This document shows positions 9,396-42,033 of a stretch of DNA of 64,000 nucleotides, in pieces. The notes under the pieces are model-generated. The model was not told where the DNA came from and did no database searches. It saw only the letters and a list, made by a program, of their open reading frames with translations. Origin of the DNA: Actinomycetes bacterium (GTDB lineage Bacteria > Actinomycetota > Actinomycetes > JAHEKZ01); contig JAHELE010000003.1 in assembly GCA_024644345.1 (NCBI GenBank), positions 1,288 to 65,287 of the forward strand. The letters run 5' to 3'. The position numbers and the translations under genes were made by a program. Numbering within the stretch: position 1 is the stretch's first letter; each line of letters starts with the position of its first letter.

Positions 9396-9433
9396 GTGGT
9401 GAGCCTAGGGGAGGTCCAGGGCGGGGCCAGGCG

Positions 9434-10045
9434 TCAGCGGGAGTCGAGGATCAGAGACATTGCCTCGGCCCGGGTGGCGGTGTCGCGCAGCTGCCCACGC
9501 ACGGCCGAGGTGACGGTGCGGGCACCGGGCTTGCGGACGCCACGCATCGACATGCAGAGGTGCTCGCACTCGAGCACCACGATCACGCCCTGCGGCTCAA
9601 GAATCTCCAGCAGTGAGTCGGCGATCTGCGTGGTCAGGCGTTCCTGCACCTGGGGACGCTTGGAATACACATCCACCAGTCGCGCCAGCTTCGACAGACC
9701 CGTGATGTGGCCAGCCTCGCTCGGGATGTACCCGACATGTGCAACACCGTGAAACGGCACTAGATGGTGCTCGCACAGTGAGTAGACCTCGATGTCCTTG
9801 ACCAGGACCATCTCGTCATGACCGAGGTCGAAGGTCGTGGTGAGGACGTCCTCAGCCCTCAGCCGCAAGCCGGACAGCGTTTCCGCGTACATCCGCGCAA
9901 CCCGCTCAGGCGTGTCACGCAGCCCTTCACGTTCGGGGTTCTCGCCGATCGCCAGCAAGAGCTCGCGCACGGCGGCCGCCGCACGCTCGTAGTCGAAGGG
10001 GGCCGTCACATCGTCGGCAGCGGACAGACCAATGGGGTCGACCAC
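9434..10045 (-). CDS. folE: GTP cyclohydrolase I
   Basis: '[18 protein letters not shown]' active-site motif, 203 aa. Confidence 0.92.
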
Positions 10046-10048
10046 CGC

Positions 10049-12040
<1,992 letters not shown>

Positions 12041-12164
12041 GGCGAGGGCGCCAGCGCCCTGGACCTCCTGCTACGGGGGAAGACTTCGGGCTTCGACGGT
12101 ACACCGCCATGATCAGCCCCGCCCCCACAGCAAGCGATCACAGCCCTACGTTCGCCGCCAGCGA

Positions 12165-12728
12165 TCACCCACCAGGCCGGTACACATGCCTGGCGAGGCT
12201 GCCCACGAAGGGCAGGGAGCGGTACTTCTCCGCGTAGTCCAGGCCATACCCGACGACGAACTCCGGTGGAATGTCGAACCCCACGTACTTGACCTTGGCC
12301 GGGCCTCCTCGACTGGAGCTGTCCTTCTGGGCCTCCGGCTTCCGAAGCAGCGTGCACACCTCGAGCGACGCCGGCCCGCGTGACGAGAGGTTGCGCAGCA
12401 GCCACGACAGAGTGAGTCCTGAGTCAACGATGTCCTCGACCACCAGCACATGACGGTCAGTGAGGTCGGCATCCAAGTCCTTGATGATGCGTACCACCCC
12501 GCTCGACCGCGTCCCCGACCCGTACGAGGAAACAGCCATCCAATCCATTTCCACGCTGGTGTGCAGCGCCCTTGCCAGGTCAGCCATCACCATGACTGCA
12601 CCCTTCAGCACCCCCACGAGCAGCAGCTCCCTACCGGCATAGTCGGCGTCGATCTCAGCAGCCAGCTCGGCGATCCTCGTGCGAATCTGATCGGCATCTA
12701 TCAGTACGGCGGCGAGGTCGTCGCCCAT
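12165..12728 (-). CDS. hpt: Hypoxanthine-guanine phosphoribosyltransferase
   Basis: PRPP-binding motif '[15 protein letters not shown]'. ORF track gives 12165..12824, but the start is probably the internal ATG (MGDDLAAV..) at 12728. Confidence 0.88.
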
Positions 12729-12756
12729 GTCCTTGGCGTCCACAGCGCTCTTCCTC

Positions 12757-13788
12757 CTAGCCGACCTCCGCCGCAGGATGCGGCGCGAGTTGGAGCCTGC
12801 CACAGTCGCGTTCGGCGCGAACACCTCCGGGGAGGTGCACGGGGCCCTGGCCCCGCCACCTGGTCACCAAGGCATCGACGTCAGCAAGGTGAGACGCCCT
12901 GAGGTCGCCTCCCGGGACTCCTCGCTCGAGCGCTTCGGCCCGAAGCACCCGCCGCCGAACCGCCGCTGGAGCGGTCGCGAGGATCTCCGCATCGAGAGCA
13001 GGTCGCTCGGCATCATCCACACACCGGGCTGCGCGATGCACGTCCATGGCCCACTGCTCCAGGGCGGCATCGTCCTCGCGAAGAAGGTCCGCAGTTCGGG
13101 CGAGAGCTGCAACCACACCGGGGCCGAGCTCGCGTTCGACAACCGGGATCACGCGCTGTCGCACCCGCACGCGCGTGAAGGACGCGTCGTCATTGTGCGG
13201 GTCATCCCACACCGGCACGCCCTCGCCATTGCATGCCTCTCGGGTGGTGACGCGGTCAATCGTGAGCAGGGGGCGTCGATAGCGCCCTCTTACCGGGGCC
13301 ATGCCGCTGATCGATCGCGCCCCAGAGCCCCTGGCCAGACCAAGAAGCACCGACTCCGCCTGGTCGTCACGCGTATGACCCAACACCACGACCGCGGCGT
13401 CCAGCTCTGTCGCCACCTCGTCTATCGCGCCGTACCTGGCGCTGCGCGCTGCCGCTTCCGGTCCGCCTTCGACGCCCACGCGCACGGCCCGGATGACGAC
13501 CGGATCCAACGAAAGCCCGGCCAACGCGTCGGCCGCCGCTCTCGCTGTCCCTCCGGAATCTGTCTGAATCTGGTGATCCACCACGACGGCGGCCACCCGC
13601 CAGTCAGCTGTGCGCGCCTCGAAAGCGGTGGCCGCGGCGAGCGCCATCGAGTCGGCCCCACCACTGGCAGCCACGAGCACAACCGCACCGGCCGGAACGT
13701 CGGCCAGGCACTCGCGCACCGCATGCCGCACCCGCGCCACCGCGGGGGGCGGACCGGTCATGAGACCGTCGCCACCCGCGCGATCCAC
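12757..13788 (-). CDS. tilS: tRNA(Ile)-lysidine synthetase
   Basis: PP-loop '[14 protein letters not shown]', 343 aa. Sits upstream of hpt as in mycobacteria. Confidence 0.85.
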
Positions 13789-27454: not shown

Positions 27455-28938
27455 CAGCTCTCTCGTTCCACGAGCTCGTTCCGCAGCGCGGCCTTCTCCA
27501 CCTTGCCCATCACGTTGCGCGGCAGGCTCTTCATCACCACGATTTCCTTTGGCACCTGGTACCCGGCTAGCCGCGACCGTGCTGCCTCACGCAGCACCTC
27601 GGGCTCGAGCCGAATCTCGGGGTTGGCGACAACGACGGCCACGACGCGCTCTCCGAAGTCCGGATCCGGCAGTCCCACCACGGCCGACTCCACCACCCCG
27701 GGCAACGAGTCAAGGACACTCTCGACATCGGTCGGGTAGACGTTCAGACCCCCCGTGATGACAAGGTCCTTCGAGCGACCCACCAGCTCGAGGTATCCAT
27801 CATCATCGAACCGGCCCAGATCGCCGGTACGGAACCACCCGTCTGTCGTGAACGACTCGTCCGCGAGCTCCGGTCGCCGCCAGTAGCCGGAGAAGACGTT
27901 CGGACCGCGTACCTGCACATCGCCCACCTGCCCCGCCATTACAGGTCGATCAGCTTCGTCCACGGTTCGGATTGACACCCCGGGAAGCGGGGGACCGACA
28001 GTCCCAGGACGCCGTGGGCCGGCAAGGGGGTTGGAGGCCAACATCGAGGTCTCGGTCATTCCGTAGCGTTCGAGGATCTCAGCGCCTGTCCGTGCGGTGA
28101 ACTCAGCATGCGTTGCCTGCGTCATCGGTGCCGAACCAGAGACGAAGAGCCGCACCCTGGCGCAAGCGGCGGCGGTGAATCTCTCGTCAGTGAGCAACCG
28201 CGTGTAGTGCGTCGGTACCCCCATCACCACCGAGCAGGACGGCAGTGCGGCCAAGATCTCATCAATGTCGAAGGTGGGTAAGAGCACCATGGACGCACCG
28301 CTGGTCAGAACGCAGTGCGCTGCCACGAAGAGACCGTGAGTGTGAAACAGCGGAAGGATATGCAGGAGGACGTCCGAAGGAGTGAATCGCCATGCGTCGA
28401 CCAGGGTTTGAGCGTTGGCTGCCAGATTGCCGTGACTCAGGAGTGCACCCTTCGGTCGCCCTGTGGTGCCTGATGTGTAGAGCAGAGCCGCTCCATCGTC
28501 GGCCGTCACCGCTGGTAGCTCGTCAGAGCCTTCACTCATGATGTCTCGGAGCGAACCGTGGCCCATCGCGTCCATCGTGAGCAGCCGCCAGGGCCCACCT
28601 AGTGGTGAACGCCCCGGCGAGCGGATGACCAGCGACGGCTCGGCGTCGGCCAGCAGTGCGTCCACCTCCGCGTCGGCGTAGCTGGGGTTCAGCGGAAGCT
28701 GAATCGCACCACAGCGAAGCAGCGCAAGGTGCAGGACCACCGTGGCCACCGACTTGTCCACTTGGTATGCCACTCGATCACCGATGCCGATGCCAGACGC
28801 CACGATGGCCCGTGCCAGCCGCGTTGACGCCTCGTCGAGCTGTCCGTAGGTGAGGCCGGCACCCATCGGAGTGCGGATGGCCGGCGCGTGGCGGCTCGCC
28901 GTGACATCAGCCAGGAGCCCCAGCAAGGTACGACTCAC
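27454..28938 (-). CDS. AMP-dependent synthetase/ligase (acyl-CoA synthetase family)
   Basis: '[12 protein letters not shown]', 'TGDLGRFDDDGYLELVGRSKD'. A 1-nt stop/start overlap with the amidase gene implies an operon. Confidence 0.85.
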   Translation of the reverse strand: MSRTLLGLLADVTASRHAPAIRTPMGAGLTYGQLDEASTRLARAIVASGIGIGDRVAYQVDKSVATVVLHLALLRCGAIQLPLNPSYADAEVDALLADAEPSLVIRSPGRSPLGGPWRLLTMDAMGHGSLRDIMSEGSDELPAVTADDGAALLYTSGTTGRPKGALLSHGNLAANAQTLVDAWRFTPSDVLLHILPLFHTHGLFVAAHCVLTSGASMVLLPTFDIDEILAALPSCSVVMGVPTHYTRLLTDERFTAAACARVRLFVSGSAPMTQATHAEFTARTGAEILERYGMTETSMLASNPLAGPRRPGTVGPPLPGVSIRTVDEADRPVMAGQVGDVQVRGPNVFSGYWRRPELADESFTTDGWFRTGDLGRFDDDGYLELVGRSKDLVITGGLNVYPTDVESVLDSLPGVVESAVVGLPDPDFGERVVAVVVANPEIRLEPEVLREAARSRLAGYQVPKEIVVMKSLPRNVMGKVEKAALRNELVERES

Positions 28939-29081
28939 TTGCTCACCCGATATCTGCTGCCACGTGCACGCTCGATGCCCACGCTGAGCCGTGGGCTTCA
29001 GACCCTATTGGAGCGGGTCGATATGCCGTAGAGATGCTTCCCTACCCGCCTTGGCTCGGGTTATCCTTGGCTCGCTGACTG

Positions 29082-29091
29082 ACTGACCAGT
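29082..29091. promoter_or_regulatory. Operator-like inverted repeat ACTGACCAGT followed by CACTTTTC, 21 nt upstream of the Rieske oxygenase ATG
   Basis: Reverse complement of the site at 23242..23251, with the same downstream TTTTC and the same distance to the start codon. Confidence 0.45.
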
Positions 29092-29111
29092 CACTTTTCA
29101 ACGGAGGATCG

Positions 29112-30212
29112 ATGACCACCCAGGTTCGCCACACGCTGCCGGCCACCCACTACTACTCGCCTGAGCAGTACGCCGTGGAGCAGGAGTGCCTGTGGTACGA
29201 GCAGTGGGTGTTTGCGGGGCGGGCCGACCAGGTGGCCGACCCGGGCCAGTTCCTCACCGTCGACATCGCCGGCCAGGGCGTGCTGATCACCCGCAACAGC
29301 GAAGGTGCGCTTCGGGCGTTCTACAACGTGTGCAGTCACCGTGGCGCCGTGCTCTGCGACGACACCCGAGGCGAAACCAAAGCAGTGTTCCAGTGTCCGT
29401 ACCACGCGTGGTGCTATGACTTCGACGGCGTGCTCGTCGCCACCCCCCGGGTCGACAAGGACGAGGTTGACCGATCGGTCCTCGGACTCAAGCCCGTGCA
29501 CGTCGACGATTGGCAGGGTTTCCTTTTCGTCAACCTGAGCCGCGAAACGCCGACGCCACTGCGCGACTCCCTAGACGGTCACTACGACTCACCGCTGCGC
29601 TTCGAGAAGCACGAGCTCGACCGCCTCGCCACCGTTCACCGCACCGAGTCAGTCGTAGCGGCCAACTGGAAGATTCTGATCGAGAACTACAACGAGTGTC
29701 TGCACTGCCCCATCGTCCACCCCGAGCTGGTGGAGGTCGTTCCGACCTACAAGAAGGGCATGACCGGCGACCGAAGCCGAGAGGACGGCGGCGTCGCGCT
29801 AATTACTGGTGGGACGAGCTACTCCGACGACCCTCGTGCTCGCCGGGCCGTTCTTCCCGGCATGAACGACGAGATGGCCCACAGCATCTACGGCAGTCAG
29901 GTGTTCCCCAACATGTTCCTCGACATCGCCGGCAGCAATGTCGTCGCGACCAGGCTCGTTCCGGAGGGCCCCCTCCAGACCCGCGTCCTCACCGAGTACC
30001 TCTTCATGCCCGAAGACATCGCTGAGCCGGACTTCGACCACCAGCCGGTCGTCGACTTCTGCGAGCTGGTTGCCGGGCAGGACTACGCCGTATCCGAACG
30101 CGTCCAGCGCGGTATCACCTCACGCGGGTTCGCACACGGCGTCTACCCCGAGAAGGACGACTACGTCCACCAGTTCAACGAGTACTACCGCAAGGTCATG
30201 AACGAGGCCTGA
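29112..30212 (+). CDS. Rieske [2Fe-2S] non-heme iron oxygenase alpha subunit (GbcA/CntA/Stc2-like)
   Basis: Rieske motif 'CSHRGAVLC..CPYHAWCYDF' and mononuclear Fe site 'NECLHCPIVHPE'. No adjacent reductase gene. Confidence 0.85.
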   Translation: MTTQVRHTLPATHYYSPEQYAVEQECLWYEQWVFAGRADQVADPGQFLTVDIAGQGVLITRNSEGALRAFYNVCSHRGAVLCDDTRGETKAVFQCPYHAWCYDFDGVLVATPRVDKDEVDRSVLGLKPVHVDDWQGFLFVNLSRETPTPLRDSLDGHYDSPLRFEKHELDRLATVHRTESVVAANWKILIENYNECLHCPIVHPELVEVVPTYKKGMTGDRSREDGGVALITGGTSYSDDPRARRAVLPGMNDEMAHSIYGSQVFPNMFLDIAGSNVVATRLVPEGPLQTRVLTEYLFMPEDIAEPDFDHQPVVDFCELVAGQDYAVSERVQRGITSRGFAHGVYPEKDDYVHQFNEYYRKVMNEA

Positions 30213-30239
30213 CGCACCTGGCACGACCGCAACAGCAAT

Positions 30240-30818
30240 GTGATGGTGTTCACTAGTTCGATGGCGTCGTCCCGCACAGTTCACCGCAGCCTGCTGGATG
30301 CCATGGACAACGCATGGGAGCCCGTATCCGCTCGGTTGTCAGGTATGAGTGAGAGCGAGTACGCGTGGCAGCCAGTCGCCGAGTGCTGGACCGTTCGCAC
30401 CCACGGTGGCCATTGGCTCGCAGACTGGGCGGATCCGGACCCTGATCCCGCACCCGTGACGACGATTGCCTGGCGTACCTGGCATGTTGCGGTCGATTCC
30501 CTCGACAGCTACTCCGAGAGACTGTTCGGCGTACGGGGTACCGGCCTCACGGGAACGAACTGGGTGGGGACCTGGCGCGAGGCCGAGCCACTTATGGCGG
30601 CCGCGTTCGACGTCTACCGCAGAGGTGTTGCTGGGTGGACCGACAAGACGCTGCTGGCTCCTCTGGGTGCACAGTGGGGTCCGTTCGCACACCACACTCA
30701 TTTGGATCTTGCGTTGCACGCTATCCGCGAGCTGATCCACCACTTGGCCGAGATTGCGCTCCTGCGTGACCTCTATCGAGCGATGCTCGACCAGCGCGGA
30801 AGTGACTTTCTGCCCTGA
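30240..30818 (+). CDS. DinB/YfiT-like (DinB_2) superfamily protein
   Basis: His-rich 4-helix pattern ('HGGHW', 'WHVAVDS', 'HHTHLDLALHAIRELIHH'). 27 nt after the Rieske gene, so probably co-transcribed. Confidence 0.55.
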   Translation: MMVFTSSMASSRTVHRSLLDAMDNAWEPVSARLSGMSESEYAWQPVAECWTVRTHGGHWLADWADPDPDPAPVTTIAWRTWHVAVDSLDSYSERLFGVRGTGLTGTNWVGTWREAEPLMAAAFDVYRRGVAGWTDKTLLAPLGAQWGPFAHHTHLDLALHAIRELIHHLAEIALLRDLYRAMLDQRGSDFLP

Positions 30819-30926
30819 CGCTCCGACTGAGGGCCCCGATAGATTTGTTGTGGCGACCACGCCTCGGTCGCCGACGGGACTGCCAGTCGCCCCGCCTCTC
30901 GCTAGTGAGAGTGTCGGAGGGTTGAC

Positions 30927-31898
30927 ATGACATTCATGCGTACAAAAACATCCCTCTTCGCGGTTGCCGCTGTAGCGGCGCTCGCAGTCGGGGGTACATC
31001 CGCAATCGCGGCCGAGGAGGAAACCCTCGGCAACAACCTCTCGATGCCGGTCGTCTTCGCAGAAGGCTACGGAATCACCGGGATGGAAACTCAGCCCTAC
31101 ACCACGTACCCCACCCTGACAGAGGACGACGGGCTCCGGCCACGCACAGAGGCCGAAGCGCTTCCGTTCCTGGAGGACGGAACACCCGCCCCCTATCTGG
31201 ACATGGCTGACGCGTACATGCTGGACGGAACCACGTACTACACCCAGAAGGGGCCGAGCACCTGGAAGGCTTACGCGAAGGACGGCGCCACCAACAAGAA
31301 GGTCGCTTCCCTCGTGTACTTCGGTGACAACCTCACGGGCCACCAGTGGACAACGAACGTCAAGATCATCCACCTGGAGATGGGGCTGCAGAAGGAGATG
31401 ACCGATCCGCAGCTCACCTACCCGATGACGTCCCTAGAGGGCACCAAGATGAACGAGGTGTTCGGGACGACCGGCGAGCCCGCAACGGGTACGACCGCCA
31501 AGGTCTACACGCCCATGGGCAAGCTGGTTATCCAGAAGCTTGACAAGAACCACAAGCCCATCGGCAAGATCTTTAAGCAAGCCATCTACCAAAGCTTCTC
31601 GACAGATGGCAGCGGGCAGTTCGCCACTGAGGTCACTGGATCCGGCACGCTTTCCTACGGCTACAACTGGTTCCTCAGCGACACCGGCGACTTTGCCAAG
31701 GCCGGTTGGTGGAGGATCACTTTCAAGATCAAGGCAGAAGGCACGTGGAACGACGGCGTCGAAGACGTGACCGTCGACCGCAACGCCAAGATCGTGGGCA
31801 AGATCGTTAGCACTGAGACGGAAGGCGAAGCACCGCTCTTCCCGATCAAGATCGCTGACAAGTACACCGCCTACGTGGACATCCAGATCATCAAGTAG
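30927..31898 (+). CDS. Secreted protein of unknown function (Lys-rich, low GC)
   Basis: Sec signal MTFMRTKTSLFAVAAVAALAVGGTSAIAAE preceded by a GGAGGG RBS. About 53% GC versus about 70% in flanking DNA. Confidence 0.5.
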   Translation: MTFMRTKTSLFAVAAVAALAVGGTSAIAAEEETLGNNLSMPVVFAEGYGITGMETQPYTTYPTLTEDDGLRPRTEAEALPFLEDGTPAPYLDMADAYMLDGTTYYTQKGPSTWKAYAKDGATNKKVASLVYFGDNLTGHQWTTNVKIIHLEMGLQKEMTDPQLTYPMTSLEGTKMNEVFGTTGEPATGTTAKVYTPMGKLVIQKLDKNHKPIGKIFKQAIYQSFSTDGSGQFATEVTGSGTLSYGYNWFLSDTGDFAKAGWWRITFKIKAEGTWNDGVEDVTVDRNAKIVGKIVSTETEGEAPLFPIKIADKYTAYVDIQIIK

Positions 31899-32009
31899 TT
31901 CACACGCGGCTTCACGGAGAGGGCTGTCCCCTCGGTTCTCTCCGTGGAGCCCGCCGAACGGCACTAGTCGACTCACGCAGACCCGACCGAAGATGCCGAG
32001 TCAGCGCTG

Positions 32010-33428
32010 ATGAGGGAGGGGCATCTCATGAAACACCGCAGACAGCATCTTCTTCTGCTCGCAGCCGCGGCAGTGGCGATCGGAGTTGCTCCAGCGTGGA
32101 GCCCGATGGCCATCGCTGATGAGGCTGCGGCACCTGACGACACATCCACCAGCGCCGAGATCACCGAGCCATCGCTCGCTACGGATCCGGGCGAAGCCGC
32201 TGACCGGGCCGAGCCGGCCGACGCGACGATACCCGCTGAACGGTCCACATCAGACTCCTCGCCCGCTGACGACGTCACCGATCCCGTGGCCGAGGACCCT
32301 GTTCCGGGCAAAGAGTCCGCTACGGCAGAAGAGCCCGGCGATGAAGGAGGGCACGAAGGTGGCGGCCACGGCGAAGGTGGCACCCTGCCCGATGGAGTCA
32401 CTGTCACCGTCGACGGCCGCAACATCCAGGCCACCGACCCTGAAGGCAGCCTGCCGAAGATCGCCAGCTGCACCTTCGACGTCGTCGCCAGTGGTCTCAC
32501 CACTGAGCCACCCGACACAGTGGGCATCCGGATCGTGGCCTGGCCCCCGACAGCTCCCGGCGAAAGCCGCGTCAAGCTCGTTGACATCACCGAGACTTCA
32601 GTTGACGGCGCGTGGGCCGGCGGATTCCCTCTCGATGAAGCGGTCCAGCAGTTCGACCGTAAGGGAAACGGCTACCACATGCGGTTCGAGTTCCTGATCA
32701 ATGACGACGTCGTCGCCATGAAGATGTACTGGCTCGGCTGCGGCGAACCTCAGACCGGAAACCCCCGCCGAATGCTCTTCGATGTGCAGTGGTACGACGC
32801 CGATGGGACCCTGCTCACCACCGCTCTCGACAGCGCACTTCCTGCAGGTTGGCGTCAAGGCTTCGTGCTCGACGCTGCAGGCGAACGCGGCACGGTGGAA
32901 TGCACCTACCCACCCGGCTCAGACCTGCTGAGCTGCCAGTACGTGAACCCGGGGCACGGAGATCAGCCCGGTCTCGTGCTGCCAGGCAAACCTGGGACCA
33001 GCTACACGGTGGACGTGACTGGTGAGCCCCGTCGCTGGGTTGTGGACGACGAGACAGTCGGGAGCTTCCTGGCTGACGACACCTGCCCAAAGGGCGGCGG
33101 CCACGACGACGGACACGAGGAGACGACGGCAGCAGTCACCCGAGCTGAGGGTGAGGACGGAGACGGCGAGCATGCGGCGTGCGTCCACACCGTCGCGATC
33201 AACCAGCTGGCCGTCGTTACCCCGCCAGACGAGGGCAACGATGGGAACGCCAATCCTCCCGACACCGGAGGTGGAGGCAATGCCAACCCAACCGAAGGTA
33301 ACGCTGCTGCGCTTCCAACTACCGGCGCCAACTCGCTCCCCCTCATCCCGGCAGGACTGGTCCTGCTGGCCCTTGGAGGAGTTCTGATCGTTAGCAGCAG
33401 GCCACCCCGTCCGGTCCTGAACAGGTAG
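32010..33428 (+). CDS. LPXTG-anchored surface protein of unknown function
   Basis: N-terminal signal peptide, acidic Pro-rich linker, and C-terminal 'LPTTG' + hydrophobic helix + 'RPPRPVLNR' sortase sorting signal. Confidence 0.6.
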   Translation: MREGHLMKHRRQHLLLLAAAAVAIGVAPAWSPMAIADEAAAPDDTSTSAEITEPSLATDPGEAADRAEPADATIPAERSTSDSSPADDVTDPVAEDPVPGKESATAEEPGDEGGHEGGGHGEGGTLPDGVTVTVDGRNIQATDPEGSLPKIASCTFDVVASGLTTEPPDTVGIRIVAWPPTAPGESRVKLVDITETSVDGAWAGGFPLDEAVQQFDRKGNGYHMRFEFLINDDVVAMKMYWLGCGEPQTGNPRRMLFDVQWYDADGTLLTTALDSALPAGWRQGFVLDAAGERGTVECTYPPGSDLLSCQYVNPGHGDQPGLVLPGKPGTSYTVDVTGEPRRWVVDDETVGSFLADDTCPKGGGHDDGHEETTAAVTRAEGEDGDGEHAACVHTVAINQLAVVTPPDEGNDGNANPPDTGGGGNANPTEGNAAALPTTGANSLPLIPAGLVLLALGGVLIVSSRPPRPVLNR

Positions 33429-33434
33429 CCGGAT

Positions 33435-34442
33435 CTAACCGGTGAAGCCCAGGTGGATGTGGTCCTGATGTGTGTCGTCGGAGAAGAACGACGCACCTGA
33501 TCCGTCAAGGTCAACAGGACCACCCACCTGGTATGCGCCACCTTCTCGGGCAGCGCGCATGAAGTTGGCTACGGCCTTGCTGTAGCCGGACGAGATGATC
33601 GAACGACCGTCGAGCGCCCAGATGTCCACGGCCAGCCCCTCCGTGTGATTGCTCGTCCGGTCGGTGCCGAACACCCGCAGCGGGTGACCGGAGCGAAGAA
33701 CACTGACATCCAGCCGGTGACGCCGGGCCAGCGACACCAGCGCTTGGAGCACCGAGCCGTCGATCACCCCCGCCCGAACATCGCGTCTCGCTGCGAACGG
33801 GAGGACGATGCGATCGTTGCCCAGCACCTGCTTCGCCTCACGTGAGATCTCCCCGGATGGTCGTCCTGGACGGGCGGGACGGACTGCCGTCACCGCCCAC
33901 TGCGGCTCGTCCGCCACCAACCGGACGTCTAGCGTTGTTCCCCTTCTCCTCACGCGCCCGTCCACCCCCAGCCGCCACTGGTCAAGAACCACGAGCACGG
34001 AGGCACTCCCAGCAAGGATTCCGCCGTACTGGGCCGTCACCACCTGAGCCGCGGATGCCGGATCGTCGGAGACAACCGGGGCAAGGTCGGCGGCGAGTTC
34101 CGGATCATTGCCCGAGGCTCGGACGCGGGTCCGCGCAGCGGCTATTCCGCCATCGCCTACGTCCCACACGGCCGCGGCCTCGACGAGTCGAACGGCGGCG
34201 AGCTTCACGTTTGGTGAGACCTCTCGTGGCGATGGCCGCCATATCGTGGTTCTGGGTAAGGCGGCTGTCGTCGACTCCGACGGAGAAGGAGTGCCACCAG
34301 TCGCCGGAGCCATCGAGGTCGCGGCTCCTCCCGGCTGAGATTGTGCGCGATCTGTGCAGCCCGCCAGACCAATGGCAGCCCCGGCGGCCAGGGTAGAACG
34401 CAACATGCTGCGCCGGCTGATGCTCACCGACTCATCATCCAA
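33435..34442 (-). CDS. Peptidase M15 (VanY-like D-Ala-D-Ala carboxypeptidase) Tat lipoprotein
   Basis: Tat motif 'SRRSMLRS' with 'LAGC' lipobox, M15 zinc motifs 'SNHTEGLAVDI' and C-terminal 'HQDHIHLGF'. Confidence 0.65.
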   Translation of the reverse strand: MDDESVSISRRSMLRSTLAAGAAIGLAGCTDRAQSQPGGAATSMAPATGGTPSPSESTTAALPRTTIWRPSPREVSPNVKLAAVRLVEAAAVWDVGDGGIAAARTRVRASGNDPELAADLAPVVSDDPASAAQVVTAQYGGILAGSASVLVVLDQWRLGVDGRVRRRGTTLDVRLVADEPQWAVTAVRPARPGRPSGEISREAKQVLGNDRIVLPFAARRDVRAGVIDGSVLQALVSLARRHRLDVSVLRSGHPLRVFGTDRTSNHTEGLAVDIWALDGRSIISSGYSKAVANFMRAAREGGAYQVGGPVDLDGSGASFFSDDTHQDHIHLGFTG

Positions 34443-34478
34443 CAGCCGCCCTCATGCTCGTAGACAGACCATCGCCCA

Positions 34479-35897
34479 ATGCTGATACGGTCCGAAGCGT
34501 CGAGGAAAGGACCGACGGTGACCCGTGTGCGGCAGGCGCTGGCCCTCACGGTTCTGGGGTTGGGCGCGTCGGGTTTGTTGGTGGGTACTGCTCCCGGCGC
34601 CTCCGCACCACATGAGTTCTCAGCACTAGTCCATGCACGAGCGACATTTGACCCCGGCGCAAAGATCGACCATGTGGTGGTCATCGTGAGGGAGAACCAC
34701 TCATTCAACTCGGTTCTCGGCCCCTTCTGCGCCAGGGCCCACAGATGCGTGGGCGACGACATCGGAACCCGGGAGCCCACCTCGACTGGATCAGCCCCCC
34801 TCGCGAAGGCCCCAGATATCGTGCCCAACACCGATCACTCACACTGGGCGCAAATGAGGGCGTGGAACAACGGGGCCAACGACCACTGGAATCTGATCGG
34901 GGGATGCTCCGCCTCGACAGGCTATGCCTGCTACCAGGCCTACGAGCCGCAACAAGTTCCCAACGCCACTGCACTCGCGACTACCTATGCCCTAAGCGAC
35001 AACACGTTCACCTGCCAACGACAGGCCAGCTGGAGTGACAAGTTGACCTGGGGCTCGGCCTGCGACCAGAACGGCTTCCTGGGTAGCAACCCTCAGCCCT
35101 ACCCGGGGGTTCCTGACAACTCGGGATGGGGCTGCACATCGAACAAGGGCACACCTTGGAGGGGTGTTCGCGGAGACCCCTTCACGAAGGAACCGTCCTG
35201 CATCCCGGACTACTCGACGGGACTCGAGTTTGGCGGCGCGTTCAGGGCAACGCCGGTTCCCGAACAGGTGTCCCTATTCGAGAACTGTGATCTCGCACCC
35301 AGATGCACCTGGGTCGACTACAACACCGCCAAGGTGTGGAGCCCGACTGAGATGCGTGCCTATACCGTCTTCAACCACTCCAGCAGACGAACACCGACCC
35401 AGTTCCTTGCCGATGCCGGGAACGGAAAGCTGCCGAGCATTTCCTTTCTGACCTCGTCGTTGACCAAGCCCAGTGACTCGCAGCACAACGGTGACTCCAT
35501 GCTGATCGGGGACAACGCACTCCAGCGTGAGGTGTCGGCGGTCATGAATGGCCCCGACTGGGGCTCCACTGCCATCTTCATCACGTGGGACGACTGTGGC
35601 TGTCAGTACGACCCCGTGGCTCCTAACCGCGTGCCCATGATCATCGTCAGCCCCTACGCCAAGGCGGGCTACACCGACTCGCGCAAGACCAATTTCGCTG
35701 GAGTTGTTCGGTTCATCGAGGAGTCGTTCGGACTGCCCAGCATGAACAGGCATGATCGCCGAAAGTACGACTACCGACGCTCATTCGACTTCTCACAGCA
35801 ACCACTTGCCGGTATCGCCATGAAGAGCAGCCACGTTCCGCGGGCGTCCCGCCTTGCCACCTTGAAGAACCCCGCAAACGACCTCGACGACTCCTAG
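34479..35897 (+). CDS. Phosphoesterase family protein (non-haemolytic phospholipase C / AcpA acid phosphatase family), secreted
   Basis: Signal peptide, then 'IDHVVVIVRENHSFNSVLG', the hallmark of the PLC/AcpA phosphoesterase family. Confidence 0.75.
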   Translation: MLIRSEASRKGPTVTRVRQALALTVLGLGASGLLVGTAPGASAPHEFSALVHARATFDPGAKIDHVVVIVRENHSFNSVLGPFCARAHRCVGDDIGTREPTSTGSAPLAKAPDIVPNTDHSHWAQMRAWNNGANDHWNLIGGCSASTGYACYQAYEPQQVPNATALATTYALSDNTFTCQRQASWSDKLTWGSACDQNGFLGSNPQPYPGVPDNSGWGCTSNKGTPWRGVRGDPFTKEPSCIPDYSTGLEFGGAFRATPVPEQVSLFENCDLAPRCTWVDYNTAKVWSPTEMRAYTVFNHSSRRTPTQFLADAGNGKLPSISFLTSSLTKPSDSQHNGDSMLIGDNALQREVSAVMNGPDWGSTAIFITWDDCGCQYDPVAPNRVPMIIVSPYAKAGYTDSRKTNFAGVVRFIEESFGLPSMNRHDRRKYDYRRSFDFSQQPLAGIAMKSSHVPRASRLATLKNPANDLDDS

Positions 35898-35904
35898 ACG
35901 TCGA

Positions 35905-37248
35905 TCAGCCGTAGTCACCACGCCCCGCAGCGGACCCCTTGGGAACATCGAGCGGGAGCCAATGGGTCAGCTCGGTGGCGGACAGCTGCGTGTTGCCTGT
36001 CAGAAGTCTGACGCGTTCATTCACCCCGTCGTGACGCAGCGCGGCAAGTACGTCCGCCAGGTCCAGTAGCGGCGTGGCCCCACTTCGGCGCTTGATCACG
36101 TTCACGTGGTTCTCGCCGGCGAACTGCATCCCGTCCGGCACGAGTGCGCAGCGGAGGCTTCCACTCCCCACACTGCCGGTGATTCGATTCACGACGATCG
36201 CAGGGCCTAACTCACCCCGGCCCGAGATCACATACTGCTTCTTCTTTGGATGCTCGGTCGTCAACTCAATTGTTTCGGAGTCGGTGATGTTGTGGGCCCA
36301 CACAAGTGGCACCGTTCCCTCGTCGGGTTCATCCCTGAGTGCACTCTTGTGCTCATTCCACACAATCTTTCCAGTCACTGCCTCGTAGCCCAGGTGCCAG
36401 AGAGTCGATCTTCCTTGGTATAGCGATCGGACCGATTCTGGGTTCTCCGAGAAGAGAATCCTGTGACGGGGCGAGTTCCCGAGGACACCCAGATCAACCA
36501 TGTACCTGTCGGACTGTCGGCCCTTCTTGAGAACGATGAGTTGGACGGCCGTCTGGGCATCCTGGAAGAGCAACTTGTCGGAGTACACCTCAAGAAACTC
36601 GATCTCGGACTCCTTCACGATGTAGGCACGCAAAGCGGCAAAGAATGCGCCGTTGTTCATGGAGGGCGGCACCACATAGCCCAGGTGTCCTCCAGGCTTG
36701 AGGGCGTCGAGGCCGACCTGAAAGAACATCGAGAAGATGTTGGGGCGACCAGCCAATACCGACTGGTACCGACGCCTGACGTCCGGGTCGATCCCACGAA
36801 TCTCGAAGTACGGGGGATTTCCGATCACCACGTCAAACTCTGCAGGTGCGTCGACCTCGAGCGCCGAGCGGTTCTCTAGCTTCGCTTCGGGTACCAACTC
36901 CCGGGCCACGACAAGGGCTTGCGGGTCGATGTCCCAACCGTGGAGCTCAAGACCCCGCACACGGTCACTACACGTCCGGAGGAATTCGCCAGTTCCCACT
37001 CCCGGATCAAGAACTTTGTCACCGGGCGAAAACGGGACATGGTCGACCAAGCGTTCTCGCAAGGTGCGCGGAGTCAGGAACTGACCTATCCCGCTCCGCT
37101 CCGACTTGGGCCGACGAGCGAGGTACGCCTGACTCTCCGGTGAAAGCTCCTCGTTGGCCTCCGTCGCGATCTTGGCCACACGTACCTCCGTCCTGCGACT
37201 GTCCTCTTGCGGAACCGTAGCGCGACCCACGTCGAGGCGGCCTACCAC
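35905..37248 (-). CDS. N6-adenine DNA methyltransferase, gamma-class (M.TaqI/Eco57I-MTase-like), orphan
   Basis: Motif I 'VLDPGVGTGEFL', motif IV 'VIGNPPY', and a C-terminal ~200-aa target-recognition region. About 52% GC. No REase or specificity subunit nearby. Confidence 0.75.
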   Translation of the reverse strand: MVGRLDVGRATVPQEDSRRTEVRVAKIATEANEELSPESQAYLARRPKSERSGIGQFLTPRTLRERLVDHVPFSPGDKVLDPGVGTGEFLRTCSDRVRGLELHGWDIDPQALVVARELVPEAKLENRSALEVDAPAEFDVVIGNPPYFEIRGIDPDVRRRYQSVLAGRPNIFSMFFQVGLDALKPGGHLGYVVPPSMNNGAFFAALRAYIVKESEIEFLEVYSDKLLFQDAQTAVQLIVLKKGRQSDRYMVDLGVLGNSPRHRILFSENPESVRSLYQGRSTLWHLGYEAVTGKIVWNEHKSALRDEPDEGTVPLVWAHNITDSETIELTTEHPKKKQYVISGRGELGPAIVVNRITGSVGSGSLRCALVPDGMQFAGENHVNVIKRRSGATPLLDLADVLAALRHDGVNERVRLLTGNTQLSATELTHWLPLDVPKGSAAGRGDYG

Positions 37249-37420
37249 CGCACTCAGCGGACCACAGGACAGTGGACATGGCCCCCAGCTGCCACGGACC
37301 CGAACGCGGATGCATAGTGACCGGCGTCACTTCCGGCCGGGTCCTTCGACCCTCCCGATAGCCAAGGATCCCTGCGTCAATGGATCGGGGCCCCCACCTA
37401 GAAACAAAGGGAGTCCAACC

Positions 37421-38458
37421 ATGTCTACGATCACCGCCGAGTCGTCGGCGGGCCACCGATCCTCTGCCCCTTCGGGGGGCCCCTCGAACCTGCGGAAAGC
37501 TGCCTCGCTCCTCACAATCGCGGCGGGCCTGGTGCTGCTGGCGAGCACCTTCATAAACAACCTGTTCGCAGTCGGCCCCGCGTTCGAGGACCTGACTGAT
37601 GACTTCCGGCCGCTGCTCGTCCAACAGTCACTGGACACGGCCAAGGACGACGTCGCGGGGGTGGCCGCCGTGGGGGATGAGTTCCAGACCACGATGGGTC
37701 CGGCGCTGGCAGAGCAGATGGGACTGACCCCCAAGGAGTTCTCCGCGATGATGGACCAGCAGTTCCCCGCGGTCAGCGACGGGATGGCTGCCATCCCCGA
37801 GGTGACACCCACCTTCGACGGCCTCCTCGCTACCCTCCAGACGCAGCAGCCGCTGTTCGAGTCGGCCGACGCCATCCCGACTGAGAACCTCCCCGCCACC
37901 ACGGTGCCGTGGGCGATGCTCATCGCCGGGATCCTGTCGATCATTGTGGGAATCATGATCTGGGTAACCGCCCGGACTGGCGCGTTCCTGGCCCTCGTAC
38001 TTGGCGGTGTGCTGATCATTGCACCGCTGGCACTGTCGCTGCCGCAGAAGGCGTCCGACGCGGACCAGCTCAACGCGAATCTCCAGCCGGTGTACACCCA
38101 GGAGCTCGTCACCCAGGCCGCCGGTGCGGTTACGGTGCTCGGGGCCATGGGCGAGGAGATGCAGACCACGATGCTGCCCGCCCTCGCTGACCAGCTAGGA
38201 ATGTCGCAAGACGAGCTCAACGCAATGATCGGCGACAACTTCCCGGCGGTTGCCTCCGCGATGCAGACGCTCCCCGACTCGATGGCGCGGTTCCAGGGCC
38301 TGGTCGGCGCGTTCGACCAGAACCTGGCGAACTACGACACCATCAAGTCGGTGTCGTTCGTCCCGATCATCTGGACGATGATCGGTGCCGGCGCGGTTGT
38401 CTTCGTGTCTGGAGCGCTCGCATTCGTTGGCCGGCCACGCGCATACGCCGCAGCCTGA
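37421..38458 (+). CDS. Hypothetical membrane protein with internal tandem duplication
   Basis: An AAAGGGAG RBS precedes the ATG at 37421. Two ~110-aa halves are clearly homologous ('TMGPALAEQMGLTPKEFSAMMDQQFPAVSDGMAAIPE' vs 'TMLPALADQLGMSQDELNAMIGDNFPAVASAMQTLPD'), each followed by a TM helix. Confidence 0.5.
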   Translation: MSTITAESSAGHRSSAPSGGPSNLRKAASLLTIAAGLVLLASTFINNLFAVGPAFEDLTDDFRPLLVQQSLDTAKDDVAGVAAVGDEFQTTMGPALAEQMGLTPKEFSAMMDQQFPAVSDGMAAIPEVTPTFDGLLATLQTQQPLFESADAIPTENLPATTVPWAMLIAGILSIIVGIMIWVTARTGAFLALVLGGVLIIAPLALSLPQKASDADQLNANLQPVYTQELVTQAAGAVTVLGAMGEEMQTTMLPALADQLGMSQDELNAMIGDNFPAVASAMQTLPDSMARFQGLVGAFDQNLANYDTIKSVSFVPIIWTMIGAGAVVFVSGALAFVGRPRAYAAA

Positions 38459-38468
38459 CACCCGCCCA

Positions 38469-38504
38469 CAACTGCTCGGGTCGGATCGTCGACCCGAGCA
38501 GTTG
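38469..38504. terminator. 15-bp perfect stem hairpin (CAACTGCTCGGGTCG-gatcgt-CGACCCGAGCAGTTG), terminator-like, between the membrane-protein gene and tRNA-Thr
   Basis: Exact inverted repeat. No U-tract, i.e. the I-shaped type common in high-GC actinobacteria. Confidence 0.5.
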
Positions 38505-38528
38505 GTTGGATCGGACCGCCGACGGACG

Positions 38529-38604
38529 TGGAGCCGCCTATCGGAGTCGAACCGATGACCTACGCATTACGAGTGCGTCGCTCTACCAACTGAGCTAAGG
38601 CGGC
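38529..38604 (-). tRNA. tRNA-Thr (anticodon CGT), CCA encoded
   Basis: The reverse complement folds as a cloverleaf GCCGCCT/AGGCGGC acceptor, GCTC-AGTTGGTA-GAGC D-arm, ACGCA-CTCGTAA-TGCGT anticodon arm, ATCGG-TTCGACT-CCGAT T-arm, and CCA. Confidence 0.85.
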
Positions 38605-38671
38605 GTGCCCTATTTCCCAGGGCGAAGGCCGAGTCTACCGATGGCCCTCCCTGAGCTGGGATCGGGCCGGG

Positions 38672-40186
38672 TCAGCAGATGGTCGGGTTGGCGGGAGTCT
38701 CGCCGGCCACAAGGTACTTGTCGACAGCATTGTCGACGCAGGTGTTCCCTGCGTTGTAGCCGGTGTGACCATCACCATTTCGCGAGACCAGAACGCCGTT
38801 CTGGAGTGACCTGGCCAGTCGGACCGACCAGGAGTAGGGCGTCGCTGGGTCGCGCGTGGTGCCAACGACGACGATCGGGTCGGCTCCTTCGGCGATTACC
38901 TTTGTCGGAAAGTCGCCCTTCTTCACCGGCCAGTCGCGGCACCCGACGGCTCCCCATGCGAAGGTCCGGCCGAAGATCGGGGAGATCTCTTCGTAAGCGG
39001 GGATCTGCTGTTTCGCCGTGGCCACTGATGAGGACCCGGGGCGATCTGTGCAGCTGATGGCCGGGAAGGCAGAGTTCACGTTCGATGCATAGGTTCCATC
39101 GTTGTTCCGTTCTGCGTACGCGTCGGCCAGCGCCAGCAGCACCGTGCCGTCACCGTTCAAGGCCTGCGATAGCCCGAGCCGCAATGACGGCCAGCCGGAC
39201 GCCTCGCTGTACATCGCTGAAATCATGCCCGTGGTTGCCAGCGACTCGGTGAGCGGGCGGCCTGATTGAGTGGGCAGAGGAGACTGGTCGATCGATGCCA
39301 GGAGATCGGCGATCTGTTGCTCCGCAGCATCTTGCGTTGGCCCGACAGCACATCCGCGCCGTGCGATGCAGTCGTCAATGAAGGACTCTGTCGCCCGTTG
39401 GAAGCCGCGCAGCTGCCCCTTCGACAAACCGTTGCTGGTGACAGCGGGGTCAAGTGCGGCGTCCAGCACCATGCGGCCGACCCGCTTAGGGAACAGCTCG
39501 GCATAGATCGCGCCGAGCTCAGTGCCGTAGCTGGCCCCGAAGAAGTTGAGTCGAGGCTCGCCCACTGCTGAACGAAGGATGTCGAGGTCGCGTGCGGAGC
39601 TGAAGGTTCCCAGTTGCGGGATCAGGTCTGCATCATCCGCGACGCATCCCTTGGTGAACTGCTCGTTGACGCGAACGAGCTCGCGGACCTCGGCCTGATC
39701 GTCCGGGGTACCGTCGGTCTCGTAGTAGGTGTCGGTCTCGCTGTCGGTCATGCACGAGATTGACGTGCTGTCACCAACTCCCCTCGGATCCCAACCGACG
39801 ATGTCGTAGTGCTCCAGCACCGGTTGGGTGAAGAGCGCCTCGGCGAGCTTCGCGTAGCTGTTACCCGAAACCCCAGGGCCGCCAGGGTTGACGAAGAGCG
39901 AGCCGAGACGCTCGTCCTGGTTGTCAGCGGCGCGTTTGAGGAGCGCCAACTGCACCGTGCCCGCGTCCGGTTGATCGTAGTTGCGGGGTGCTTCTACCGT
40001 GGCGCACTCGAAGTCTCCGCACTCCTTCCAATCGGCACTCTGGTTGTAGAACGGTTTGAGCGCCTGAGGCTCTGCCGTCGTGAAGGAGGGACTGGGAACT
40101 GGTGATGCAGCCACACTGGGCTCTGCAGTGGTACACCCGGCCAGAAGAAGCGCGGCTGCTGCTCCCAGAGCGAGGATCCGGATCAA
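38672..40186 (-). CDS. Secreted alpha/beta-hydrolase, tripeptidyl-aminopeptidase (S33/TAP) family lipoprotein
   Basis: Lipobox 'LLLAGCTT', a/b-hydrolase nucleophile elbow 'GASYGT', and a TAP-like C-terminal domain with a conserved Cys pair. Confidence 0.7.
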   Translation of the reverse strand: MIRILALGAAAALLLAGCTTAEPSVAASPVPSPSFTTAEPQALKPFYNQSADWKECGDFECATVEAPRNYDQPDAGTVQLALLKRAADNQDERLGSLFVNPGGPGVSGNSYAKLAEALFTQPVLEHYDIVGWDPRGVGDSTSISCMTDSETDTYYETDGTPDDQAEVRELVRVNEQFTKGCVADDADLIPQLGTFSSARDLDILRSAVGEPRLNFFGASYGTELGAIYAELFPKRVGRMVLDAALDPAVTSNGLSKGQLRGFQRATESFIDDCIARRGCAVGPTQDAAEQQIADLLASIDQSPLPTQSGRPLTESLATTGMISAMYSEASGWPSLRLGLSQALNGDGTVLLALADAYAERNNDGTYASNVNSAFPAISCTDRPGSSSVATAKQQIPAYEEISPIFGRTFAWGAVGCRDWPVKKGDFPTKVIAEGADPIVVVGTTRDPATPYSWSVRLARSLQNGVLVSRNGDGHTGYNAGNTCVDNAVDKYLVAGETPANPTIC

Positions 40187-40881
40187 CCGCGAGTTCCCGG
40201 GAGGACAGACTGCAACCAGTTGATCAGGCCATTGGGGTTGCGGCTCTGGGTCACGACTCGTCCCGGGCCCTGAAAGTCGAGTACGAGCCCCTCACCAGAC
40301 TTCATGGTGGACATCAGTCCAGACGTCACCTTGCGCGTCTGCAGCGAGATGGTGTCGTCGTAGGCGACCAGGTGCCCGGAGTCGACGGTGAACCCCTGAC
40401 CTTCCTGCAGATCGTGAACATCCATCGCTCCATAGGCTGCCAGGACGATGGGGCCTTCACCGGTGGCATGGAGCACAAAGAGGCCCTCACCCCCGGTAAA
40501 CATCTTGGCCCCTCCCCACTTGGTGTCGATGTCAACACCGGACGCATTCGCCAACCAGGACCCTCGGGTCACGACAAGCGCTCGGCCCGGCACGACGTCG
40601 GTCACCCAGATGTCGCCGGGAAGATTCGCCGCGACATCAACCCAGGTGCTGGACTCTGCATGCCCGGTGAAGGTGGTGACGAACAGCGACTCGCCACCCA
40701 TCACGCCACGCTTGAAGGCGCCCTTGAGCCCTCCCTGCATTTTCGCATCGACTGCCACTCCGAACGAGTGCATCGCCATGGCCCCCGACTCAGCCCGAAC
40801 CTGCTCGCTCGGCTCTAGATGGATGCGGGCAACTGAGAAGCTTGGTTGGTGACGAAGCTCGACCTGCATGTGCTCTCCCAA
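40183..40881 (-). CDS. AIM24/DUF124 (TIGR00266) family protein
   Basis: 232 aa with repeated 'GEGLFVL/GEGLVL' beta-rich segments typical of the AIM24 family. 4-nt overlap with the hydrolase gene. Confidence 0.6.
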   Translation of the reverse strand: MGEHMQVELRHQPSFSVARIHLEPSEQVRAESGAMAMHSFGVAVDAKMQGGLKGAFKRGVMGGESLFVTTFTGHAESSTWVDVAANLPGDIWVTDVVPGRALVVTRGSWLANASGVDIDTKWGGAKMFTGGEGLFVLHATGEGPIVLAAYGAMDVHDLQEGQGFTVDSGHLVAYDDTISLQTRKVTSGLMSTMKSGEGLVLDFQGPGRVVTQSRNPNGLINWLQSVLPGTRG

Positions 40882-42033
40882 TCAGCTGGCCCGTAGGGCC
40901 AGCGTCAACTCTTCCACTGCGAGCAGCGGTGTGACATAGGCGGCGATCTTCTCGCGTGCGTCCAGTATCGCCTCCATCGCCCGCATCGTGATCTCGGGTT
41001 GATAACGGCTCGCGACCTTCTCGATGTTGGCTCGCAGCTCAGCGTTGACCAGCGGCACCTCACCGCCCACCTGAACCACCAGAACATCTCTGTAGAACGA
41101 CAAGAGGTCTTGCAGATCTCGGTCGAGCTCATCGATCGTCGCACGCTTGCGTCTCTTGTCCTGCGTGTCCTTCAGACGCTTGAACTCGGAGCGTGCCCAC
41201 TTCGGCGGTCGGTCAGGGTTCTCCACGCCGAGCCCGCGACCGAGCTCGATGCGCTCGACCTCATCCACGGACTTGGTTCGCTCGGCGCCCCGTTCGGTGG
41301 CGGCGTCCACGAGCTCTCGGGCGGACAGCAGCGCCGAGCCGAGCGACGACACATTGACCGGGAGCGACAGCGTCGCCGCGCGCGTGAGTCGAGCCTGCTC
41401 ATCACGGGCAAGTCCGCGAGCCCGACCGATATGCCCCATTGAGGCACGAGCAGCGAACGCCGCCATCGCCTCGTCGGCGCCGTCACGCTCCACCAGATGG
41501 CGTGCGACGTCAGTGGTCGTGGGCGTTGTGAGCACAACATGGCGACATCGCGAGCGAATGGTGGGCAGCACGTCTTCCATCGAGGGTGCGCAGAGCAGCC
41601 AGACCGTATGAGGTGTCGGCTCTTCCAGCGACTTCAGCAAGGCGTTGTTCGCTGACTCGGTGAGCCGGTCGGCGTCTTCGAGAACGATGACGCGCCAACG
41701 ACCCACCGACGGGGCGGTGGACGCCTCGAGCACCAGGGACCGAGCCCGCTCGACCGAGATCGTCATCGCTTCGGTGGCGACGTGGTCGACGTCAGCATGT
41801 GACCCCAACAGTGCGGTGTGGCAGTCGGGGCAGTGCCGGCACCCACCGTTCGGACACACCAGTGCTGCTGCAAACGCCCGTGCGGCAACAGACCGTCCCG
41901 ACCCCGGTGGGCCCGTGAAGAGCCAGGCGTGCGTCATCGCCGGCCCGGGGGACTCAAGTGCGGCGTCTGAAACTGCCCTGACCAGTTCGGTACGAGCTCT
42001 CTCTTGGCCCACCATCGAGTCGAAGACGCTCAT
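40882..42033 (-). CDS. holB: DNA polymerase III subunit delta'
   Basis: 'HAWLFTGPPGSGRS', zinc module 'CPNGGCRHCPDC', AAA+ clamp-loader fold. Confidence 0.85.
   Translation of the reverse strand: MSVFDSMVGQERARTELVRAVSDAALESPGPAMTHAWLFTGPPGSGRSVAARAFAAALVCPNGGCRHCPDCHTALLGSHADVDHVATEAMTISVERARSLVLEASTAPSVGRWRVIVLEDADRLTESANNALLKSLEEPTPHTVWLLCAPSMEDVLPTIRSRCRHVVLTTPTTTDVARHLVERDGADEAMAAFAARASMGHIGRARGLARDEQARLTRAATLSLPVNVSSLGSALLSARELVDAATERGAERTKSVDEVERIELGRGLGVENPDRPPKWARSEFKRLKDTQDKRRKRATIDELDRDLQDLLSFYRDVLVVQVGGEVPLVNAELRANIEKVASRYQPEITMRAMEAILDAREKIAAYVTPLLAVEELTLALRAS

Follow-up and report, generated by a model that had tools for sequence, protein, structure and literature searches.

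We analysed a 64,000-nucleotide stretch of contig JAHELE010000003.1 from an Actinomycetes bacterium (hereafter the window, meaning the whole 64 kb) and focused on a DNA methyltransferase (MTase) gene at 35905..37179. With good confidence, we regard this gene as a solitary type II gamma-class N6-adenine DNA MTase which derives from a mobile restriction-modification (RM) cassette and which is present as a one-gene insertion. The enzyme belongs to an RM-type family, is intact, and has no cognate nuclease gene in its flanks in the 64 kb searched. The reading is carried by the identity, fold and intactness of the enzyme, by an insertion/deletion (indel) difference to its relatives, by the association of its family with a nuclease-like gene, and by the absence of such a gene from the window; activity, specificity and biological role are inferred. 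The value of the window itself is small, as it adds one more solitary type II MTase. A low-GC islet, a tRNA target and a membrane-protein partner, all proposed in a preliminary description of the same DNA, are not real.

The methyltransferase and its gene

MTase coding sequence (35905..37179, minus strand): 424 amino acids (aa), supported by the open reading frame (ORF), the Pfam families Eco57I and N6_Mtase, and an AlphaFold2 model.
Shine-Dalgarno sequence GGAGG (37185..37189, minus strand): 5 nt upstream of the GTG at 37179, read directly in the sequence.
Motif I (36982..37008, minus strand): S-adenosylmethionine-binding loop DPGVGTGEF, residues 58-66 of the 424-aa protein, from the translation.
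Motif IV (36808..36819, minus strand): catalytic NPPY, residues 121-124, which aligns with the NPPY of M.TaqI.
C-terminal target-recognition domain (TRD; 35950..36477, minus strand): approximately residues 235-410, from invariant blocks and the structural alignment with M.TaqI.

Profile searches place the protein among the N6-adenine DNA MTases. The Pfam matches are Eco57I (PF07669, 4e-16, 60 bits at a cut-off of 25.3) and N6_Mtase (PF02384, 1e-13, 51.5 bits at a cut-off of 20.4), and in PADLOC a type II MTase model scores best (4e-44). The Pfam model TaqI_C does not match the window MTase. Its best sequence match in the PDB is M.TaqI (1e-10). The AlphaFold2 model, which was built on 39 family sequences, has a mean pLDDT of 91, and in a Foldseek search of the PDB M.TaqI ranks first over the full length (TM 0.68-0.76, approximately 410 aligned columns), followed by the DNA adenine MTases CamA and M.BseCI. 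The alignment to M.TaqI takes in its DNA-recognition domain. Motif I is located N-terminal to motif IV, which is the gamma-class order. Pfam, PADLOC and the full-length M.TaqI fold thus confirm the preliminary description in its view of the enzyme as a TaqI-like gamma-class N6-adenine DNA MTase with its own TRD. Membership in MADS, BREX or type IIG systems is not indicated: the weaker PADLOC and NCBIfam hits, to models of mad2, PglX and IIG, span the catalytic core alone and are far below the cut-offs. Those systems feature a multidomain MTase of >650 aa, mad1-8, brx/pgl genes or a fused nuclease, whereas here a 424-aa MTase is found among housekeeping neighbours.

Conservation was assessed in a family alignment of 39 sequences (A3). 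The columns of motif I are invariant or nearly so; N121, P122 and P123 of motif IV are invariant, and Y124 is nearly so. The TRD contains the invariant blocks VWN, PLxWAxN, GPxxxxNRxxGxVG, ENHxN and LTGNTQxSxxE and shows the same degree of family-wide conservation as the catalytic domain. Because of this strong TRD conservation, the family members probably share one recognition sequence. The window MTase keeps all 84 invariant columns and departs at 3 of the 132 highly conserved ones, which is about the family median. The enzyme is intact and probably active.

The open frame of the gene extends upstream to a GTG at 37248 (35905..37248, minus strand), which would give 447 aa. Most likely, the GTG at 37179 is the true start and the protein has 424 aa, because GGAGG is located 5 nt upstream of it and both recorded gene calls, P0001 (Logan) and P0241 (NCBI), have this length. 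P0241 is identical to the translation from the window. Hence, of the 447-aa ORF with DPGVGTGEFL and NPPY in the preliminary description, the ORF and the motifs stand, and the length is more likely to be shorter.

The base composition of the gene is ordinary. It had been described as a gene of about 52% GC in a genome of about 70% GC, forming a low-GC islet. We measured 60.7% for the gene and 65.6% for the window, and the adjacent native phosphoesterase gene has 61.5%. GC at third codon positions (GC3) is 72%, with 71-76% in most neighbours. In synonymous codon usage (leave-one-out likelihood), the MTase gene ranks as the 8th most atypical of 36 genes and is no outlier. A comparison of GC and codon usage had been suggested as a genome-wide check; within the window it turned out against the islet, and a compositional island around the MTase is ruled out by GC, GC3 and synonymous codon likelihood. 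A scan for promoters and terminators in 35700-38700 found nothing.

A single-gene indel between native genes

Inserted segment (35901..37307, no strand): 1407 bp, from blastn against the relative L004; it holds the MTase gene and its 5' region alone.
Phosphoesterase-family gene, native (34479..35897, plus strand): Pfam PF04185 (9e-37), syntenic in L004.
Membrane-protein gene, native (37421..38458, plus strand): four transmembrane segments and an internal duplication; the halves align, and homologues occur in relatives.
Imperfect direct repeat, left copy (35917..35936, plus strand): 20 nt, within the codons of the non-conserved C-terminal tail; repeat family D3.
Imperfect direct repeat, right copy (37244..37263, plus strand): 20 nt; repeat family D3.
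tRNA-Thr(CGT) (38529..38604, minus strand): found with ARAGORN, 70 nt past the stop codon of the membrane-protein gene.

The MTase is a single-gene presence/absence difference between the phosphoesterase gene and the native membrane-protein gene. L004 (GCA_024644435.1) is the closest relative with a long contig. It has 66 bp in place of window positions 35901-37307 and is otherwise collinear with the window over 27569-38468. In blastn, L004 4232-7819 corresponds to window 32325-35900, and L004 7886-9051 corresponds to window 37308-38468. The homology ends a few bases past the stop codon of the phosphoesterase gene and restarts in the 5' region of the membrane-protein gene. Six more related contigs (L005 and L090-L094) align with the window solely from 37308-37340 rightwards and contain no MTase. 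Together with L004 they make seven contigs from four distinct relatives in which the MTase is absent and the membrane gene region is present at 79-88% DNA identity. As L004 keeps both flanks without the MTase and the six other contigs keep the right-hand one, the membrane protein and the tRNA are native, and the MTase alone is variable. An assembly or binning chimera as the cause of the insertion is ruled out by L095, an independent assembly from another run (SRR12825371), which matches the window at 99.88% identity over 35499-38094, a range that includes both junctions. The locus is thus a junction-resolved case in which an MTase gene alone makes up an indel flanked by native genes; the host belongs to an uncultured lineage of Actinomycetota that is Acidimicrobiia-like by the labels of homologues.

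The phosphoesterase and MTase genes are convergent, and their stop codons are 7 bp apart. Hence, there is no room between them for a restriction gene or its remnant.

Near both borders of the 1.4-kb insert, the direct-repeat copies ACCACGCCCCGCAGCGGACC and ACCACCGCACTCAGCGGACC match at 16 of 20 positions. The pattern can be written as ACCAC(N)GC…CAGCGGACC. None of 300 shuffles reached a match as good, and 2 of 300 real-sequence controls at equal spacing did; the meaning of the repeat for the insertion is unproven. GCCCCGGAC is present once at the empty site of L004.

The preliminary description had proposed that the MTase was acquired at a tRNA site. The tRNA-Thr(CGT) is indeed where it had been placed, but it does not abut the MTase, since the native membrane gene is located between them. 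The comparison with relatives sets the borders of the insert at 35901-37307, with the MTase alone inside and the tRNA outside. The insertion point is the spacer between the phosphoesterase and membrane-protein genes, 1.2 kb from the tRNA. L005 aligns with the window up to 38573, which is inside the tRNA-Thr. No integrase, nuclease, specificity subunit or helicase was found among the eight flanking ORFs scanned (32010-42033), in agreement with the earlier statement that restriction endonuclease, specificity subunit, helicase and integrase are missing. With the distance to the tRNA, the native gene in between, no integrase in the flanking ORFs and ordinary composition, the locus lacks the features of a tRNA-targeted island. 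Beyond the tRNA-Thr, positions 38672-42033 encode a TAP-like alpha/beta hydrolase, an AIM24-family protein and then DNA polymerase III delta' (holB), which is a housekeeping context. The hydrolase matches the PADLOC candidate model C3a206 (8e-94), which is labelled just "TAP-like protein."

A genuine tRNA-flanked low-GC RM islet, just what the preliminary description had proposed for the window, is found in a different genome. In L054, a Microbacteriaceae metagenome-assembled genome (MAG), the region 8247-11345 contains a perfect 133-bp direct repeat with the whole tRNA-Leu(GAG) (8247-8330 and 11262-11345). Between the repeats lie 2.9 kb with a GC content of 48.8%, whereas the locus as a whole has 60.3%. 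This stretch encodes a nuclease-like ORF of the type called C22 below (9003-9968, minus strand) and an MTase of the family (10001-11221, plus strand).

The divergent membrane protein was correctly described as having an internal tandem duplication. Its halves align at 30% identity (E = 2e-17), and it has two soluble repeats of approximately 110 aa at this identity. It has 498 homologues, all unnamed, mostly in MAGs of Acidimicrobiia/Actinomycetota and in varied genomic contexts. Searches of NCBIfam, PADLOC, PHROGs and the PDB gave no match, and those of Pfam gave none above threshold; DUF7144 and DUF937 are the only Pfam matches, both sub-threshold.

The methyltransferase family and its nuclease-like partner

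More than 1,000 full-length homologues of the MTase were found at ≥50% identity. A search of 185,579 species-representative genomes gave 178 stretches that encode a relative, with 38-73% identity. The relatives occur in Actinomycetota, Acidobacteriota, Planctomycetota, Zixibacteria, Patescibacteria, Pseudomonadota, Chloroflexota and Nitrososphaeria archaea. The distribution of the family is patchy, and the family is horizontally transferred. Carriage by mobile elements was searched for in INPHARED phages and PLSDB plasmids, and nothing above 31% identity was found. Five distant relatives are present among 2.9 million IMG/VR contigs.

To describe the neighbourhood of the family, neighbouring ORFs were clustered in the best 80 loci from other species. 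A partner ORF of 300-350 aa abuts the 3' end of the MTase gene in 35 of them, and the other 45 have no partner. Thus, the adjacent cognate nuclease gene of a complete type II RM system, lacking in the window, is present as this ORF in 35 of the 80 loci of relatives. By sequence, the partners form the four clusters A (16 loci), B (11), C22 (4) and C23 (4). In clusters A and B the partner gene is convergent and located -32 to +38 bp from the MTase end, with the exceptions L069 and L084. All partners bear a D…(E/S)-x-K signature and a C-terminal motif like (R/H)WKN…P(A/C)W. In the C23 partners D102, E121 and K123 are invariant. The predicted fold of the partner is closest to those of HinP1I and MspI. 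We therefore treat the partner as a predicted PD-(D/E)XK nuclease and as the putative restriction half of an RM cassette of this family.

Representatives of the four clusters gave no significant match in Pfam, PADLOC, NCBIfam or a phmmer search of the PDB, and a database search returned 26 homologues, all unnamed. The clusters are also distant from each other. In hhalign, A and B match with E = 0.055, which is not significant, and the C22 profile matches cluster A weakly (about 1e-3). Homology among the four clusters is thus suggested by motifs shared by eye and is not established. Pfam, PADLOC and NCBIfam lack the nuclease family with which the MTase family is paired, and because of this gap even its complete systems would be annotated as "orphans."

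For the window, the four nuclease profiles were run against the six-frame translation of all 64 kb without any match. In a neighbour-joining tree, the window MTase nests with those of L010, L012 and L011, all of which are partnered with the C23 type; partner-less copies are scattered among partnered ones. The abutting partner in 35 of 80 loci, the invariant D/E/K residues and the position of the window copy among partnered relatives argue for an RM ancestry of the MTase. The earlier suggestion that the MTase is solitary here and derived from an RM system is borne out by the missing profile match and by this nesting.

Several loci show altered partner genes. The partner gene is split into two frames in L010 (7349-8418; same contig as L001), L014 (11244-12199) and L019 (11175-12106), and in L069 (10858-11736) it is cut short next to a truncated MTase. 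Such broken genes are either decaying restriction genes or the result of long-read indel errors. L002 was obtained from the sample that gave L010; the MTases of the two are identical, and the C23 ORF of L002 is unbroken. L011 (Demequina rhizosphaerae, 11121-13317) has two paralogous C23-type ORFs directly downstream of the MTase (11121-12290, plus strand; 12367-13317, minus strand).

A partner-less branch is found in Solirubrobacterales/Thermoleophilia, where at least 19 species keep the MTase in conserved synteny (L027, L032, L033, L036, L041, L042, L044, L046, L052, L057 and others). The order in these species is a 228-aa HAD-like gene, the MTase (approximately 10001-11220 in most), a 158-aa GNAT-like gene on the opposite strand, and a membrane protein of approximately 750 aa which is sulfatase-like by eye. 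This branch could be a lineage-conserved orphan or epigenetic MTase and is a candidate for such a role.

The recognition sequence was approached by palindrome avoidance in partnered loci, using 4- and 6-bp palindromes in 21-kb loci. The pooled scan was rejected as a pointer to specificity, as it is dominated by GGCC, CGCG, TGCA and GTAC, which are depleted everywhere. We then made a matched contrast of the groups R-A (a subset of L066-L089) and R-B (L016, L021, L026, L034, L049 and L076) with partner-less loci. ACGT is the sole palindrome depleted both in A (observed/expected 0.69, z -4.6) and in B (0.66, z -5.5), with a ratio of 1.01 in 22 partner-less loci. In the C23 group, which is closest to the window, the ratio is 1.16 in 58 kb only, so ACGT is not depleted there. 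Nor is it depleted in the window, with 267 sites at 275.5 expected. TCGA is not consistently depleted in partnered loci. ACGT as the family target is thus a weak lead and not a result. In the R-A group, GAGCTC is low as well (10 sites at 33 expected).

Mode of action, alternative readings and known systems

From the M.TaqI-like fold, the following mode of action can be proposed. The N-terminal Rossmann domain would bind S-adenosylmethionine via DPGVGTGEF, a flipped-out adenine would be methylated at NPPY, and the C-terminal domain would read one short DNA sequence. The family would be the modification half of a mobile type II RM cassette, with the PD-(D/E)XK nuclease of 300-350 aa as its restriction half. 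The lineage of the window would have the MTase alone, as a 1.4-kb insertion with its own ribosome-binding site. With no cognate nuclease nearby, the MTase would methylate its own sites genome-wide. Most likely, this would shield the chromosome from incoming restriction systems with the specificity of the MTase, have incidental epigenetic consequences, or do both.

Four points weigh against the reading as a solitary, RM-derived insertion. Activity and target are predicted from the sequence and unproven. The restriction gene could lie outside the visible 64 kb. Gain in this lineage as opposed to loss in the relatives is a parsimony argument over a handful of metagenomic relatives, of which L004 alone shares both flanks. 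Finally, the codon usage matches that of the host, and for this reason the insertion is either old or from a donor of like composition.

Two other readings take the MTase as a DNA enzyme with a different role or context. It could be a domesticated epigenetic regulator, similar to Dam or CcrM, which is kept for the control of gene expression or replication. The intact enzyme, the strong ribosome-binding site and the host-like codon usage favour this, as do the at least 19 Solirubrobacterales/Thermoleophilia species with a syntenic partner-less copy, and conserved orphan MTases are common (PMC4752239). However, regulatory orphans tend to be conserved at the genus level or above (PMC4752239), whereas the MTase is missing from every close relative sampled at the locus (L004, L005 and L090-L094). 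As the gene is absent from the closest relatives, an old lineage-fixed role is disfavoured, and we consider a domesticated regulator unlikely. A working RM system with the nuclease encoded elsewhere in the genome is less likely still. Only 64 kb of the genome are visible, the MTase is fully intact, and restriction genes are hard to recognise, a caveat also made in PMC4752239. Yet each of the 35 partnered loci of the family has the nuclease gene immediately next to the MTase gene, no nuclease profile matches anywhere in the window, and the ACGT count in the window is weak evidence in the same direction.

The membrane protein was earlier considered a candidate defence partner, so that the MTase would be the modification module of an unrecognised defence system with the duplicated membrane protein as its effector. 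The two genes are divergent neighbours 241 bp apart, and no function is known for the membrane protein. In the seven related contigs without the MTase, however, the membrane gene is kept together with its upstream region from approximately 37308, and the gene is found in unrelated contexts as well. A tblastn search of 83 MTase loci (1.4 Mb) gave no homologue of the membrane protein, and one of 11 membrane-protein loci gave no MTase, so the two were never seen together beyond the window. The MTase family has its own recurrent partner in the nuclease-like ORF. This reading is close to refuted. A housekeeping RNA or protein N6-adenine/glutamine MTase is the least probable identity of all. Its sole basis, NCBIfam matches to PrmC/HemK, RsmA and Erm, is sub-threshold (16-34 bits at cut-offs >100) and covers the Rossmann core alone. 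The grouping with rRNA or protein N6-adenine MTases, raised in the preliminary description as a possible outcome, was not observed, as the full-length fold including the C-terminal DNA-recognition domain is that of M.TaqI, CamA and M.BseCI. The physical pairing of the family with a nuclease-like gene in 35 loci and the patchy spread of 178 hits in 185,579 species genomes are also unlike a housekeeping enzyme, and this identity is effectively refuted.

Beyond the solitary, RM-derived MTase that we favour, a more far-reaching scenario can be drawn, which we consider unlikely. The gene would be a recent capture from an unannotated RM family, composed of a HinP1I/MspI-like nuclease and a TaqI-like MTase with possibly ACGT as the target, which crosses phyla as far as archaea. 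This family would repeatedly shed its nuclease, some orphans would become fixed (as in Solirubrobacterales), and the window copy would have moved as a bare cassette via the 20-nt repeats. If true, bare-cassette movement would be a way for an MTase to spread without its toxic partner.

M.TaqI: This enzyme (target TCGA; PDB 2ADM, 1G38, 2IH5) shares the two-domain architecture of the window MTase and is nearly equal to it in size (421 and 424 aa, respectively). The motif order, FxGxG followed by NPPY, is also common to both. The identity is just approximately 20%, and the target of the window MTase need not be TCGA.

R.TaqI, R.HinP1I and R.MspI: No sequence similarity was detected between the family partner and R.TaqI or any other solved chain. 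The fold resembles that of the monomeric PD-(D/E)XK type II nucleases R.HinP1I and R.MspI, which differ in sequence (8% identity) and length (241-262 aa vs approximately 320 aa); cleavage by the partner is only predicted.

CamA: The second-best structural match is CamA of Clostridioides difficile (PDB 7LT5), which is also an orphan gamma-class adenine MTase with a C-terminal recognition domain. It is larger (approximately 580 aa) and shares 12-13% identity with the window MTase. CamA has a defined function in sporulation and is conserved throughout C. difficile.

Solitary type II MTases: The window MTase also resembles the RM-family MTases without an adjacent nuclease that are surveyed in "The Epigenomic Landscape of Prokaryotes" (PMC4752239). 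As in orphans that arose by nuclease loss, intact, frameshifted and absent nuclease genes are all present in the family of the window MTase. Conserved orphan families are fixed at the genus level or above (PMC4752239), whereas the window copy is missing from the closest relatives and resembles the "singleton" orphans of that survey. Solitary type II MTases are common: of the 230 prokaryotes surveyed in PMC4752239, 48% encode one or more (a further source is the review PMC12707154). The situation of the window gene is thus a common and well understood one.

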